Sequence record: OR062945.1
From: Escherichia phage 308Ecol101PP
Length of the DNA stretch: 64,000 nt
Direction: 5' to 3' (one strand)
Shown here: positions 36,579-51,026 of the stretch, piece after piece
Numbering within the stretch: position 1 is the first letter of the stretch
Layout of the letters: each line of letters opens with the position of its first letter
Position numbers and translations under genes: made by a program
Notes under the pieces: model-generated
The model's input: the letters and a program-made list of their open reading frames with translations, nothing else
The model's database searches: none
Told to the model about the DNA's origin: nothing

Positions 36579-36866
36579 ATGAAAACCTATAAAGAATTTA
36601 TATCACCTGTTGCTAACGTTTCTACTCTGACCGAAGCAACCCTTACTTCCGAAGTTATTAAAGCAAATAAAGGACGTGAGGGTAAACCAATGATTAGTCT
36701 GGTTGACGGCGAAGAAGTAAAAGGTACTGTTTACTTAGGGGATGGATGGTCTGCTAAGAAAGATGGCGCTACTATTGTTATCTCTCCGGCTGAAGAGACT
36801 GCACTGTTTAAAGCTAAGCATATTTCTGTAGCTCAGCTTAAAATTATTGCAAAAACTCTTCTGTAA
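36579..36866 (+). CDS. internal-protein-like protein with capsid-targeting N-terminus
   Basis: 95 aa starting MKTYKEFI...; gp21-type L-x-E site at STLTE. Confidence 0.6.
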   Translation: MKTYKEFISPVANVSTLTEATLTSEVIKANKGREGKPMISLVDGEEVKGTVYLGDGWSAKKDGATIVISPAEETALFKAKHISVAQLKIIAKTLL

Positions 36867-36869
36867 GTA

Positions 36870-36906
36870 GTTTACATGCTGATAGGACTATGTTATAGTA
36901 GTCCTA
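36870..36906 (+). promoter_or_regulatory. early promoter with stem-loop (PeSL-type)
   Basis: GTTTACA, TGTTATAGT, inverted repeat ATAGGACTA/TAGTCCTAT. Confidence 0.5.
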
Positions 36907-36935
36907 TCAAATCAACAACCAAACGGAAAAAACAA

Positions 36936-37199
36936 ATGAAAACGTATAAAGAATTTATCGCTGAATCTCAATCTTCTACTCTGTCAGAGAACTACGAATC
37001 ATTCTCTTACAACAACGACCATGCAATGTTCTACGACCGAAACATCGGTACTTATGTCCATGTATGGGGTGTTAAAGATGGTAACGTAGTTGTTAAGAAA
37101 AACTCTAAAGAAGGCAATGGTCGTGGCCAGGTAAAAATTACCAGCAAGAAAGCTATCCAAGCTTACGTCGATTATGTTAAACGCGAAGCTGGTATTTAA
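36936..37199 (+). CDS. internal-protein-like protein with capsid-targeting N-terminus
   Basis: 87 aa starting MKTYKEFIAE. Confidence 0.6.
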   Translation: MKTYKEFIAESQSSTLSENYESFSYNNDHAMFYDRNIGTYVHVWGVKDGNVVVKKNSKEGNGRGQVKITSKKAIQAYVDYVKREAGI

Positions 37200-46535: not shown

Positions 46536-47026
46536 TGATTAACAAAACATATTGGTCTAATATAGACGATGACAACGAAGGTATTTCATACTATTCAGTA
46601 GATTGGACGGGATGTCCATCCTACTTAGTGAAACATATTTGCCAAGAATTTAAAATCGACCAGCCAGCAGGTATTATTGTGAACAGATACATTAATGGAT
46701 ATCAACCTATCGATGAAGTAATACGAACAACTCAAGCTGATCTTGAAAAGTTTTTCAATAAGTGCCAATGGATAACAGGATGGATTATATTTGTACCGTC
46801 GGTATGGTTTTTTAGTACTAAAGTAAGTGCCTTTGCTGTACTAGATATTATCGCTATCTTATTAGCATCTACTATTGTAAGTATTATTGGTGGTATTATT
46901 GGTGGAGGTACTGTAGGCATCATTATTAATCTTGTTAAAAGTAGTTTACAGGAACGTAAAGACAAGATAAAGGCCAAGAATAATGAAGTTGAACGTTTTA
47001 TTACCGAATGCAGGAATTTGAGATGA
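46535..47026 (+). CDS. membrane protein with conserved C-terminal tail
   Basis: 163 aa, Gly/Ile-rich TM segment, ends ERFITECRNLR. Confidence 0.55.
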   Translation: MINKTYWSNIDDDNEGISYYSVDWTGCPSYLVKHICQEFKIDQPAGIIVNRYINGYQPIDEVIRTTQADLEKFFNKCQWITGWIIFVPSVWFFSTKVSAFAVLDIIAILLASTIVSIIGGIIGGGTVGIIINLVKSSLQERKDKIKAKNNEVERFITECRNLR

Positions 47027-47259
47027 GTATAGCAATTTACATTAAATCAGAATCATGTGATAGTTATCTGTACACATACGATAAAGACGTGTCAGAAGAA
47101 AAAATCAAAGACGATCTTAATATGGACCTTGATATGTTCTGTCCTATTGCAGATTACAAACTTGCGGTCTCTAATAGTGAAAGTCCATCTAAAGAAACGC
47201 GCATTGAAGAATTTATGTCCGAATTAATGGCTAAATCATGGGACCGAGATGATGAGTAA
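47023..47259 (+). CDS. hypothetical protein
   Basis: 78 aa; ATGA-coupled start. Confidence 0.5.
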   Translation: MSIAIYIKSESCDSYLYTYDKDVSEEKIKDDLNMDLDMFCPIADYKLAVSNSESPSKETRIEEFMSELMAKSWDRDDE

Positions 47260-47707
47260 GAAAAATAAAGTGAAAGAACTATCAGCCGGTATTATTTTCC
47301 TTACCGAAGATAAAGAATTATTCATGGGGCGTGTAACTGGTTCTCGTCCTAAAGGTTCTTTAGCTCATCGGTGGGATATTCCTAAAGGTCGTGTCGAGCC
47401 CGGTGAATCTCCTATCGAAGCCGCTATTCGTGAATGCGAAGAAGAAACTGGGTTTACACAATATGACCCTGCCTTCCTGAAAGACCTAGGTGAACATCAT
47501 TACTCAGACAATAAGAATATTCATCTGTTCCTATATACCATCCCTGTAGAGCACGAGCAATTCAGAAACAGTGTTTGTAATTCCTATCATACGTTCCCAG
47601 ACGGACGACAGATTCCTGAATTTGATGCATTCGCTTTAATTAAACCTTCTCAGTGGGAATATGTAATGGGCAAATCATTATATAAGGTGCTCACTACCAT
47701 CCTATAA
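47249..47707 (+). CDS. nudE: Nudix hydrolase
   Basis: 152 aa; Nudix box GRVEPGESPIEAAIRECEEETGF; adjacent to e as T4 e.1. Confidence 0.9.
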   Translation: MMSKKNKVKELSAGIIFLTEDKELFMGRVTGSRPKGSLAHRWDIPKGRVEPGESPIEAAIRECEEETGFTQYDPAFLKDLGEHHYSDNKNIHLFLYTIPVEHEQFRNSVCNSYHTFPDGRQIPEFDAFALIKPSQWEYVMGKSLYKVLTTIL

Positions 47708-47741
47708 GTAATAAATACCTCCTATAAACGTGGGAGGTATT

Positions 47742-48230
47742 ATGAATATATTTGAAATGCTTCGTAATGACGAAGGTCTTAGACTGACTTTATACAAAGA
47801 CACTGAAGGCTTTTGGACAATTGGCATAGGTCATTTAGTAACAAAGAACCCGTCTTTAGCTGTAGCTAAAGCTGAACTTGACAGAATGATCGGGCGTAAA
47901 TGCAACGGTACAATTACCCTTGATGAGGCTGAAAAGTTATTTAATGAAGACGTTGATAAAGCTGTTCGCGGAATCTTGGGTAATGTTAAACTTAAACCGG
48001 TATATGATTCTTTAGATGCGGTTCGTCGATGTGCATTGGTCAATATGGTCTTCCAAATGGGTGTAGCAGGCGTCGCTGGTTTTACTAATTCTCTTCGTAT
48101 GCTTCAACAGAAACGTTGGGATGAAGCGGCAGTAAATCTAGCACAATCTAAATGGTATCGTCAGACACCTAATCGCGCGAAACGCGTAATCTCAACATTT
48201 AAAACAGGAACTTGGAAAGCGTATATATGA
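47742..48230 (+). CDS. e: lysozyme (endolysin)
   Basis: 162 aa [31 protein letters not shown]..., near-identical to T4 lysozyme; GGGAGG RBS. Confidence 0.96.
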
Positions 48231-48508
48231 AAACATATAGTGAATTTTTATCAGAATCTATTCTTAACGAAGCTACTGACACATTTGCAACTAAGCTAGG
48301 TGCAGCTTTGGTTGAAGCTGAAAGTCTATTAGCACGTATTTCTGAACTTGCTAGTAAGATAGATACTCGCAAATTTGAGCGCACCAGTGATATCGTTAAG
48401 CTTGAAGCCTTGTTGCGTATGTGCGATAAACCGGAAGAAATCGCTAAGAACGGCTCGCTGATGAAACAACGTCTTGAAAAATATATTTCAGGCGCTTCAG
48501 AAAAATAG
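48227..48508 (+). CDS. internal-protein-like protein with capsid-targeting N-terminus
   Basis: 93 aa starting [10 protein letters not shown]; ATGA overlap with lysozyme stop. Confidence 0.55.
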
Positions 48509-48509
48509 T

Positions 48510-48545
48510 GTTTACTTCCTCCAAGGGTTTTGATACTATACATTC
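48510..48545 (+). promoter_or_regulatory. early promoter for denV
   Basis: GTTTACTTCCTCC...TGATACTATA. Confidence 0.5.
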
Positions 48546-48566
48546 ATCAACTACTTGGAGGAAATT

Positions 48567-48980
48567 ATGACTCGTATCAATTTAACACTTGTTTCTGAAC
48601 TGACCGACCAACATCTTATGGCTGAGTATCGTGAATTACCACGCGTATTTGGTGCAGTCCGTAAACATGTTCAAAACGGTAAACGTGTAAAGGATTTTAA
48701 AATCTCTCCAACATTTATCTTAGGCACAGGTCACGTAACATTCTTTTACGACAAACTCGAATTTTTACGTTTACGTCAAATCGAGCTAATCGCCGAATGC
48801 TTGAAACGTGGTTTCAAAATCAAGGACACATCTGTCCAAGATATTTCCGACATCCCTGCCGAATTTCGTAATAATTATGTCCCGTCCGAAGCGTCCATTG
48901 CGATAAGTCAAGCACGCTTAGATGAAAAAATTGCTCAGCGCCCGACTTGGTACAAATACTATGGTAAATCAATTTACTAA
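48567..48980 (+). CDS. denV: endonuclease V (pyrimidine dimer DNA glycosylase)
   Basis: 137 aa [31 protein letters not shown]..., near-identical to T4 endo V. Confidence 0.95.
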
Positions 48981-48986
48981 GGAAAA

Positions 48987-49247
48987 ATGAAAATGTATCA
49001 AGAATTTATCGCTGAAGCAGATGCCAAAGGTCCTAAATTTAAAGTTAAAGCTTTCATTGGTGATGCGGAAGACTTTGGCTCATTAAAACGTAATGGGTAT
49101 TCTTTCTTAGGTGGCGATGGTAAAGAAATCAACACCTATGCAAAACGTAGTGAAATTGCTTATGTTGTAGCAAGCCCTAAAGTAGATGTTGACGATATTG
49201 GATACGATTTTAACAACTTTGGAATTATTTCTGGCGGTAAAGCTTAA
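48987..49247 (+). CDS. internal-protein-like protein with capsid-targeting N-terminus
   Basis: 86 aa starting MKMYQEFIAE. Confidence 0.6.
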   Translation: MKMYQEFIAEADAKGPKFKVKAFIGDAEDFGSLKRNGYSFLGGDGKEINTYAKRSEIAYVVASPKVDVDDIGYDFNNFGIISGGKA

Positions 49248-49250
49248 ATT

Positions 49251-49280
49251 GTTTACGCTTAAGTATTAATATGGTATAAT
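49251..49280 (+). promoter_or_regulatory. early promoter
   Basis: GTTTAC, 18-nt spacer, TATAAT. Confidence 0.5.
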
Positions 49281-49310
49281 TACTCTATCAAAACAAATAA
49301 GGAAACAAAA

Positions 49311-49640
49311 ATGAAAACGTATCAAGAGTTTATCACTGAAGTTACATTATCTGCGGAACAGAAAGCTGCTATCGAAGAAGGTAAAAATCCCAAAGTAACA
49401 TATAAAGTAAATGGTAAAGGCGTTTTTGATGGCTTGGTTCAAGACCCTGAATTGAAAAAAGCTCTTTCTAAAACTAATGCGTACTTTGCTCCTAAATTTA
49501 ACGCAGCCGGTGTACTTATTGGATTGGATGTATTCAACTCTAAAGGTGTTCTATCTAATGCCTTTGGTTATGCCGCTAACAAAATTACCAAAGCCGAATG
49601 GGAATCCAATACCAAACAAGCTCAAAAGCCTAGAGTATAA
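49311..49640 (+). CDS. internal-protein-like protein with capsid-targeting N-terminus
   Basis: 109 aa starting MKTYQEFITE. Confidence 0.6.
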   Translation: MKTYQEFITEVTLSAEQKAAIEEGKNPKVTYKVNGKGVFDGLVQDPELKKALSKTNAYFAPKFNAAGVLIGLDVFNSKGVLSNAFGYAANKITKAEWESNTKQAQKPRV

Positions 49641-49812
49641 TTCTTGCCTAATAAAGGGAAACGCAACCTCTCCTTATGAACGTCGAGTCCTCTAAGTGAT
49701 GTACCTTTTCCAACCTGTAATAAGGTCGAGCGCAATGCGGTAATGGGTTTACATAGCGAGTCGAAGGACCTAACATGTGCCACGGAACGGCCCAAACCTT
49801 AAGAGAAATAAT

Positions 49813-50352
49813 ATGAGAACATTTTTAACTGGACCTTATCTATCCCTGATGAATGCTTTTACACACCATTCTGATGCTAGAGTAGAAGAAATTTGTAAGA
49901 ACGGTTATGTCCCACCATTTGAAGACGTACTCAAGCAGTACTGTACACTTCGTTTAGACGGTGGTAGACAATCAGGTAAATCGACCGCAGTAACTAATTT
50001 TGCTGTTAATTGGCTGTATGACGGTGGAACAGTTATTGTTCTTTCTAATACTTCAGCTTACGCTAAAATTTCTGCTGGCAACATTGAAAAAGAATTTTCT
50101 CGTTATTCTAGCGACGATATTCGATTCCGTTTATTTACTGATTCTGTCCGTAGTTTTATTGGCAATGAAGGTTCTAAATTCCGTGGATTAACGCTTTCTC
50201 GTATTCTGTATATAATTGACGAGCCTATTAAAGCTCCTGATATGGATAAGATTTACAACATACATATTAAAACAGTCCAACACTGTTGCAAAAGCAAATA
50301 TTGCATCAGTGGTATTGCTCGTCCTCAATTTTTTGTGATTGGAATGCAATGA
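49813..50352 (+). CDS. small P-loop NTPase
   Basis: 179 aa; Walker A GGRQSGKST and Walker B-like LYIIDE. Confidence 0.5.
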   Translation: MRTFLTGPYLSLMNAFTHHSDARVEEICKNGYVPPFEDVLKQYCTLRLDGGRQSGKSTAVTNFAVNWLYDGGTVIVLSNTSAYAKISAGNIEKEFSRYSSDDIRFRLFTDSVRSFIGNEGSKFRGLTLSRILYIIDEPIKAPDMDKIYNIHIKTVQHCCKSKYCISGIARPQFFVIGMQ

Positions 50353-50657
50353 TGACCACTATTGAAGTTTTTGAGTATTGTTATAACAGCCCAGTATGCA
50401 ATAAAAGGGCTCTTGTAGAAAATTACGAGATTTACCATTTTAAACCTAAACGATATCGTTTGACTAAAGGTCCGTTCGCAGGGCAGCAGGTTCTTTGTAC
50501 TGCTCCTAATGCACGGTTGATGACTAGTATTCCGCATTTCAAAATGGAATTTATTGATGGGCCATTTAAGGGATTAATCACTCAAAGTTTAATGGCGTTT
50601 AATTCCGACCCATTTTTGATTAAAGAAAAATCTTGGATAAATTTATTTTCTAATTGA
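50349..50657 (+). CDS. hypothetical protein
   Basis: 102 aa; ATGATG coupling to upstream stop. Confidence 0.5.
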   Translation: MMTTIEVFEYCYNSPVCNKRALVENYEIYHFKPKRYRLTKGPFAGQQVLCTAPNARLMTSIPHFKMEFIDGPFKGLITQSLMAFNSDPFLIKEKSWINLFSN

Positions 50658-50663
50658 GGTTAT

Positions 50664-51026
50664 ATGAAAGCATATCAAATTCTTGAAGGCACACACAAAG
50701 GCACTATTTATTTTGAAGACGGTACTCAAGCCCGGATTATTGTCTCTAAGACTTTTAAAGAAGACGCTATTGTAGACCCGGAAATTTTCTACGGTTTGAA
50801 TGCCCGTGAAATTGAAATTGAACATCAACCTAAAGTTAAAATTGAAGGTGGTCAACACCTGAACGTTAACGTTCTGCGTCGTGAAACTCTGGAAGATGCA
50901 GTTAAGCATCCGGAAAAATATCCGCAGCTGACCATCCGTGTATCTGGTTATGCAGTTCGCTTTAACTCTCTTACTCCAGAACAGCAGCGCGACGTTATCG
51001 CTCGTACCTTTACTGAGAGTCTATAA
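50664..51026 (+). CDS. grcA: autonomous glycyl radical cofactor (GrcA/YfiD-like)
   Basis: 120 aa; C-terminal half ...[59 protein letters not shown] carries the RVSGY glycyl-radical motif. Confidence 0.9.

Follow-up and report, generated by a model that had tools for sequence, protein, structure and literature searches.

The three open reading frames referred to here as IPa, IPb and IPc, found in a 64,000-nucleotide stretch of Escherichia phage 308Ecol101PP (OR062945.1; hereafter the window), very probably encode internal head proteins of a T-even phage of the RB69 type. They lie in the e-denV-vs.8 locus, and by analogy with T4 their products would be packed into the head, cleaved, injected and directed against host defence. 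T-even phages are known to have two internal-protein loci, of which this is the second. Over 47200-49900 the identity was 97.5% to RB69 and 98.6% to phage PNJ-6, and 141 phage records covered at least 80% of these positions; the window belongs to an RB69-like phage of the genus Mosigvirus. The genes of the locus were as follows.

47249-47707, nudE
47742-48230, plus strand, lysozyme gene e (Pfam Phage_lysozyme, 1.9e-14; annotated e in RB69)
48227-48508, plus strand, IPa, 93 aa, equivalent to RB69 ORF127c (phrog_3499 'internal head protein', 1.2e-46)
48567-48980, plus strand, denV, endonuclease V (Pfam Pyr_excise, 3.7e-14; phrog_1183, 1.5e-62)
48987-49247, plus strand, IPb, 86 aa, beginning MKMYQEFIAEADA, equivalent to RB69 ORF125c (phrog_2667 'internal head protein', 7.3e-21)
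49311-49640, plus strand, IPc, 109 aa, beginning MKTYQEFITEVTL, equivalent to RB69 ORF123c (phrog_3966, unknown function, 6.2e-33)
49641-49812, plus strand, remains of the vs.8 5' end, decayed (parts of the N-terminus of T4 Vs.8 fall in three different frames)
49813 onwards, vs.8

A preliminary description of the sequence had placed three open reading frames at 48227, 48987 and 49311, at the position occupied by ipIII and ipII in T4; all three are real, with exactly these coordinates on the plus strand, and the T4 genes do lie in the same locus. The gene order is e-ipIII-ipII-denV-vs.8 in T4, whereas in the window nudE and e are followed by IPa, denV, IPb, IPc, a gap of 170 nucleotides and vs.8, so that denV divides the cluster and two of the three genes follow it. 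The start codon of IPa (ATG, 48227-48229) overlaps the stop codon of e (TGA, 48228-48230), and this ATGA junction, also described previously, was read directly from the sequence; the T4 counterpart, in contrast, has an intergenic region of its own. IPb starts 6 nucleotides past the denV stop. The gap after IPc appears 'non-coding' because the 5' end of vs.8 decayed there, and 49641-49812 is a frameshifted leftover of that end, outside the internal-protein system. A structured RNA was considered for this interval and rejected, as Rfam gave no match and the frameshifted vs.8 remnant was found instead.

All three products begin with the same leader, as had been claimed for them, carrying the canonical Tyr4, Phe7, Ile/Leu8 and Glu10. 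In T4 IPIII, targeting depends on residues 4 and 7 and processing by gp21 on residues 8 and 10, and the first 10 residues suffice to package foreign proteins into the head (PMC9026906). The gp21 motif (Leu/Ile)-x-Glu is present at residues 8-10 as LSE in IPa, IAE in IPb and ITE in IPc. IPa may also be cut after residue 15, at LNE|A, and its mature part is 78-83 aa long (pI 6.3-8.1). The leader of IPb reads MKMYQEFIAE|ADA, followed by a mature part of 76 aa (pI ~6.4), and that of IPc reads MKTYQEFITE|VTL, followed by 99 aa (pI ~9.6). Six-frame translation of the window contained the pattern MKxYxEF[LI]xE 4 times and its 7-residue core MKxYxEF 5 times, against means of 0 and 0.005, respectively, when the window was simulated 200 times with a first-order Markov model; the shared leader is therefore far beyond chance. 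The remaining two motif copies, at 36579 and 36936, belong to the ipI locus.

36579-37199, plus strand, the other internal-protein locus, after 57B, with an IPI homolog and one leader-bearing open reading frame
36579-36866, the IPI homolog (phrog_4363 'internal virion protein', 6e-48)
36936-37199, plus strand, the second leader-bearing open reading frame of the ipI locus

Behind the leader, the three proteins part company. The statement that unrelated sequences follow it was borne out, with no detectable pairwise similarity between the post-leader parts in a BLASTP search of an eight-sequence database (all pairwise E > 0.08). The cargo had also been said to differ from that of T4, and it does: the mature parts of IPa, IPb and IPc gave no BLASTP similarity to T4 IPII or IPIII (E > 0.1), and the T4 proteins belong to other PHROGs (phrog_7857 for IPII and phrog_5341 for IPIII, against phrog_3499, phrog_2667/35655 and phrog_3966 in the window) and to other clusters. 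Orthology with IPII and IPIII was rejected on these three grounds. Two of the three genes carry the annotation internal head protein in RefSeq RB69; IPb is one of them, and the label is frequent among its records.

The known relatives of the cargos lie in other phages of the T-even type. Using tblastn, mature IPa was matched in 496 phage records; identity fell below 60% in 258 of these, and among the low-identity matches listed were Ip5/ipV of RB14, PST and related Tequatroviruses (~54% identity over ~62 residues, E 6e-11 to 1e-10). IPa is, judged by these alignments, a relative of the known Ip5 family, and the annotation note of RB14 Ip5 names RB69ORF127c as similar. Ip5 of T2/T6/RB14/RB15/RB51/RB70 and ipV of Yersinia phage PST resemble IPa in their mature part but differ in lying in the other internal-protein locus (57B-Ip5-ipI) and in having a longer, different pro-peptide (MKTFKEFATKTTITE...); one cargo family therefore occupies both loci. 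IPb was matched in 217 phage records and IPc in 90, where 23 of the 25 IPc matches listed are annotated 'hypothetical protein' and 2 are unannotated. A relative of IPc in Dhakavirus WG01, ORF115, begins MKTYQQFITE..., is 33-40% identical and likewise follows denV. Among 5.8 billion proteins, the IPb family formed only 12 clusters and the other two cargo families only 2 and 5, so that all three are tiny; the source names were all phage except for one 'hypothetical protein [Shigella sonnei]' in the IPb family, and the cargo families are restricted to T-even phages.

The denV locus was surveyed more widely in 80 IMG/VR loci together with RB69, NHEP10, T4 and the window. This survey yielded 80 leader-bearing open reading frames, almost all from T-even-type denV loci, which fell into 15 cargo families: the window cargos were assigned to F4, F5 and F9, T4 IPII to F6 and T4 IPIII to F2. 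At least one leader-bearing open reading frame was present in 29/36 of the IMG/VR loci with a DenV 60-99% identical, and none in the denV loci of the same survey with a DenV 40-47% identical.

Turnover of the cargo, described previously as rapid, is visible among Mosigvirus relatives with flanks over 96% identical. In these phages the 75 nucleotides after IPb are constant and include the first of the following two features, the second being located by alignment to RB69.

49252-49280, plus strand, putative promoter and ribosome-binding block (sigma-70-type TTTACG-17-TATAAT with TG, then AAGGAAA)
49311-49340, plus strand, IPc leader with the junction, 30 nucleotides

The constant 75-nucleotide block precedes four different cargos, namely an ORF124c-type, an IPII-like and an IPIII-like cargo and IPc. 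What occupies the slot behind it varies: RB69 and most others have a cargo of the ORF124c type there, PNJ-6 has an IPII-like one, phiC120 and Av-05 have an IPIII-like one, and ESh15 has an ORF124c-type cargo with an IPIII-like cargo after it. This slot, filled by IPII-like or IPIII-like genes in PNJ-6, phiC120 and ESh15, is empty in the window, where, as in NHEP10, the block is followed directly by IPc; NHEP11 and AV111, which match in one unbroken piece of equal length, presumably share the arrangement common to the window and NHEP10. Each cargo brings its own 3' flank, and the DNA before IPc is the 3' flank of the preceding cassette. In the window, the sequence before the IPc start codon follows RB69 ORF124c, whereas from codon 11 onward it follows RB69 ORF123c; the junction therefore lies inside the 30-nucleotide leader. 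By this alignment the window has lost the RB69 cassette ORF124c, and the leader and its flanking blocks serve as crossover sites for cassette loss and exchange. Repoila et al., cited on Ip-gene diversity in PMC12373910, are said to have described the two internal-protein loci, their polymorphism and their cassette behaviour in 1994, and reportedly proposed this crossover role. The locus, the cassette polymorphism, the two annotations and the relation to Ip5 are accordingly already known, and the leader-located cassette loss in the window is a small addition to a known locus.

That the leader is demonstrably the crossover site, right after a conserved ribosome-binding block, would suit an explanation in which the shared 5' sequence is kept as nucleic acid only, for translation initiation or recombination, and the peptide has no targeting role. 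However, among 80 distinct leader-bearing starts the amino acids were nearly invariant while the codons varied synonymously (all four codons for Thr3, three for Ile8 and four for Ala11), third positions varying freely, and the constraint therefore acts on the peptide and not on the DNA alone. The same 10 residues also package foreign proteins in T4 (PMC9026906), and we regard a role restricted to nucleic acid as extremely unlikely.

Substitutions were counted against close relatives, in comparisons that overlap and are not independent, and the numbers are small. Against five relatives, e gave 47 synonymous and 7 non-synonymous differences (S47/N7) and denV S42/N9. Non-synonymous differences were about as frequent as synonymous ones in IPb (S14/N15) and IPc (S17/N14), whereas those of IPa were exclusively synonymous (S16/N0, at least four relatives compared). 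This pattern points to strong constraint on IPa and to constraint that is weaker or diversifying in IPb and IPc, for which it fits arms-race proteins. The strict purifying selection on IPa (N0) is unlike the prediction for a fast arms race.

The same data bear on whether any of the three genes is a decaying cassette whose leader is a relic and whose product is scarce or unpackaged. Cassettes come and go freely in this locus, the window being without ORF124c, and IPb is present as fragments or split open reading frames in some phages. The RB69 reference strain, moreover, carries a compensated frameshift in the leader of ORF127c, its IPa equivalent, and a change of Glu10 to Ala in the leader of ORF123c, its IPc equivalent; under laboratory conditions, therefore, the phage can do without intact processing. 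However, all three open reading frames of the window are intact, with canonical leader residues and plausible ribosome-binding sites, IPa differs from its relatives at 16 synonymous and 0 non-synonymous positions, and each family persists in 90-496 phage genomes. Decay of this kind was judged improbable.

The signals that may govern expression of the locus resemble those of T4, beginning with a hairpin in front of e.

47714-47741, plus strand, RNA hairpin over the e Shine-Dalgarno sequence (GGGAGG at 47732-47737), -16.3 kcal/mol

This hairpin has a z-score of -3.9, 0/200 shuffles folding as well, and degenerate late-promoter boxes are found at and within it (AATAAATA at 47710). T4 e has the same hairpin layout, with two TATAAATA boxes, and there the hairpin confines e translation to late transcripts; by analogy, e of the window would also be translated only late. 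From the ATGA junction it is reasonable to infer that IPa is translationally coupled to e, as had been proposed, in which case IPa would be made late, during prohead assembly. No perfect late promoter TATAAATA was found in 47000-50400. The best promoter-like site in this interval was 49252-49280, with 10/12 matches plus TG, a candidate early/middle-like promoter. If IPc were a head protein made purely late, a sigma-70-type promoter before it would not be expected; T4 ipII and ipIII are alike in this, with GTTTAC-type/sigma-70-type promoters upstream of both.

In the mechanism we propose, the 10-residue leader would bind the scaffolding core, so that the protein is built into the prohead before DNA entry. 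The gp21 protease would then cut after Glu10 and, in IPa, also or instead after Glu15, leaving a mature protein of 8-11 kDa that would stay with the packaged DNA and be injected into the next host. There it would most likely neutralise a first-line defence against incoming DNA. If the analogy to T4 Ip1-3 holds, a different subtype of the modification-dependent restriction enzyme GmrSD would be blocked by each protein, and the DNA under attack would be the arabinosyl-hmC DNA of this phage; the GmrSD of UTI89 restricts RB69. Cassettes would be gained, lost and swapped by homologous recombination in the 30-nucleotide leader and its flanks. Packaging, cleavage, injection and defence targets are inferred for IPa, IPb and IPc, chiefly from their T4 counterparts. 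T4 Ip1, Ip2 and Ip3 each inhibit one subtype of the type IV enzyme GmrSD, without cross-protection, and the same role was proposed by the authors for all genes in both Ip loci (PMC12373910, 2025). IPIII is needed on ECOR17 and still works when the host expresses it leaderless (PMC9391042), and RB69 DNA, which contains arabinosyl-hmC, is cleaved by GmrSD enzymes (PMC6024577).

The proteins might instead be packaged for a physical role, in charge neutralisation or in DNA packaging and ejection, with a sequence that is free to drift. IPc is basic (pI 9.6), as are T4 IPII and IPIII (~9.6), lysines of T4 internal proteins contact DNA phosphates, with ~1000 internal-protein molecules lying within the DNA (PMC3012670), and IPb and IPc tolerate many amino-acid changes. 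However, IPa (pI 6.3-8.1) and IPb (6.4) are near neutral, specific GmrSD targets exist for all three T4 internal proteins (PMC12373910), and a physical role leaves unexplained both the 15 unrelated cargo families and their presence or absence among near-identical phages. A purely physical role is considered unlikely, though less so than decay, and an anti-defence function is preferred.

With respect to more specific targets, IPb and IPc, whose cargos lack any characterised relative, may be injected inhibitors of defences beyond the three GmrSD subtypes met by T4 Ip1-3, for example arabinosyl-hmC-recognising enzymes or a non-restriction first-line defence; this is a tentative proposal, to which we give somewhat less than an even chance. 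If it is true, IPc would represent a new, so far unannotated internal-protein family. Neither the sequences of the three proteins nor the poor structure models of IPb and IPc offered clues to activity. Pfam gave no match to any of the three, and PDB sequence searches gave chance-level matches only (the best being VapD, E 0.015, for IPc). AlphaFold2 gave models of low quality for IPb (pLDDT 45) and IPc (pLDDT 55), and a Foldseek search of the PDB with the IPc model gave nothing at E <= 0.001, so that no fold could be assigned. In the literature, no virion proteome of an RB69-like phage reporting IPa, IPb or IPc was found, and nothing usable on RB69 ORF123c, 124c, 125c or 127c.

An MBG_2 adhesin-repeat domain was considered for IPc, for which phmmer gave E-values down to 5e-22 against giant MBG_2 proteins. 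This assignment was rejected because the phmmer scores were summed over 10-16 near-identical MBG_2 repeats, the Pfam MBG_2 model gave no match to IPc even at E <= 10, and hhalign aligned the two with 5% probability over 16 columns.

Among the closest known systems are T4 IPII/IPIII, which have the leader MKTYQEFIAE (compared with MKMYQEFIAE in IPb and MKTYQEFITE in IPc), the same locus and size class and sigma-70-type promoters directly upstream, and which presumably share packaging, gp21 cleavage and injection; their mature sequences, in contrast, are unrelated to IPa, IPb and IPc. T4 IPI/IPI* shares the proposed logic of an injected inhibitor of a modification-dependent restriction enzyme, but has no sequence similarity to the three proteins and has a 19-residue pro-peptide. 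The Ip loci have also been compared with the anti-CRISPR loci of Pseudomonas phages (PMC12373910), in which unrelated small inhibitors likewise swap at a fixed position behind a shared regulatory sequence. Here, however, the shared element is also a coding leader that would carry the product into the capsid, so that the inhibitor would arrive with the DNA and not be expressed after entry.

The gains from this analysis are modest: a better annotation of IPc, which deserves the label 'internal protein', and a clear example of cassette loss and exchange within a leader. No other phage counter-defence proteins are known to enter the cell together with the DNA; internal proteins help to decide host range on wild strains, and each uncharacterised cargo is a ready-made probe for bacterial defence acting on entering DNA. 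The relevance is greatest for RB69-type phages, whose arabinosyl-hmC DNA is unlike that of T4, and by analogy the cargos described here are candidates for injected anti-defence proteins of arabinosyl-hmC phages.

The following further features of the window were recorded:
36579-37199, other internal-protein (IP) locus, 3' of 57A/57B, with two leader-bearing genes
47700-47745, region with the hairpin hiding the Shine-Dalgarno sequence of lysozyme gene e (-16.3 kcal/mol, z = -3.9)
49641-49812, gap between IPc and vs.8, relatively GC-rich and non-coding in appearance
50664-51026, vs.6 (Pfam Gly_radical, 2e-18)

The stretch separating IPc from vs.8 is a degraded remnant of the 5' end of vs.8. Fragments of the T4 Vs.8 N-terminus (QPVIRSS, AVMG and MCHG.AQT) were found spread over its three reading frames, and the intact vs.8 ORF restarts at MRTFLTGPYL (49813). 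An Rfam search of 49641-49812 gave no match. Phage PNJ-6 has an IPII-like cassette whose 3' flank (2750-2827 of locus L086) ends in ...ccaaccttaagagaaactaa, similar to window 49785-49812 immediately 5' of the vs.8 start (...caaaccttaagagaaataat); in the donor phage, vs.8 may have followed this cassette directly.

Two leaders are altered in the RB69 reference genome (L001, 2528-2575 and 3953-3985). ORF127c, the IPa homolog, carries a compensated frameshift within the leader, which reads MKTYMNFYQNLSLNE and retains Tyr4, Phe7 and the LNE site. ORF123c, the IPc homolog, has Ala instead of Glu10 (MKTYQEFIAAV), a substitution predicted to block cleavage at the usual site. Unlike RB69, the window has canonical leaders, as do the other five relatives in the comparison.

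At the other IP locus (36579-37199), the IPI homolog has a 19-residue pro-peptide (MKTYKEFISPVANVSTLTE|ATLTSEV...), and the other leader-bearing ORF (MKTYKEFIAE...) belongs to phrog_13302, a family of unknown function. Upstream of e, the Shine-Dalgarno hairpin is of the type known from T4. The two late-promoter boxes, perfect in T4, are degenerate in the window (AATAAATA and TATAAACG). The vs.6 product is a stand-alone GrcA-like glycyl-radical domain, as in T4.

An exhaustive phmmer search using IPc as the query gave very low E-values for giant surface proteins built of MBG_2 repeats (database records P0020-P0029). These were rejected as relatives, since the E-values arose only because matches to a short motif (G..NP..TY.V.G) were summed over many repeats, a pitfall for automated annotation.

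IPb is split or truncated into ORFs of 50-63 residues in several phages (e.g. vB_EcoM-UFV13 and phage records P0007 and P0009-P0011); single cassettes therefore undergo decay besides exchange.
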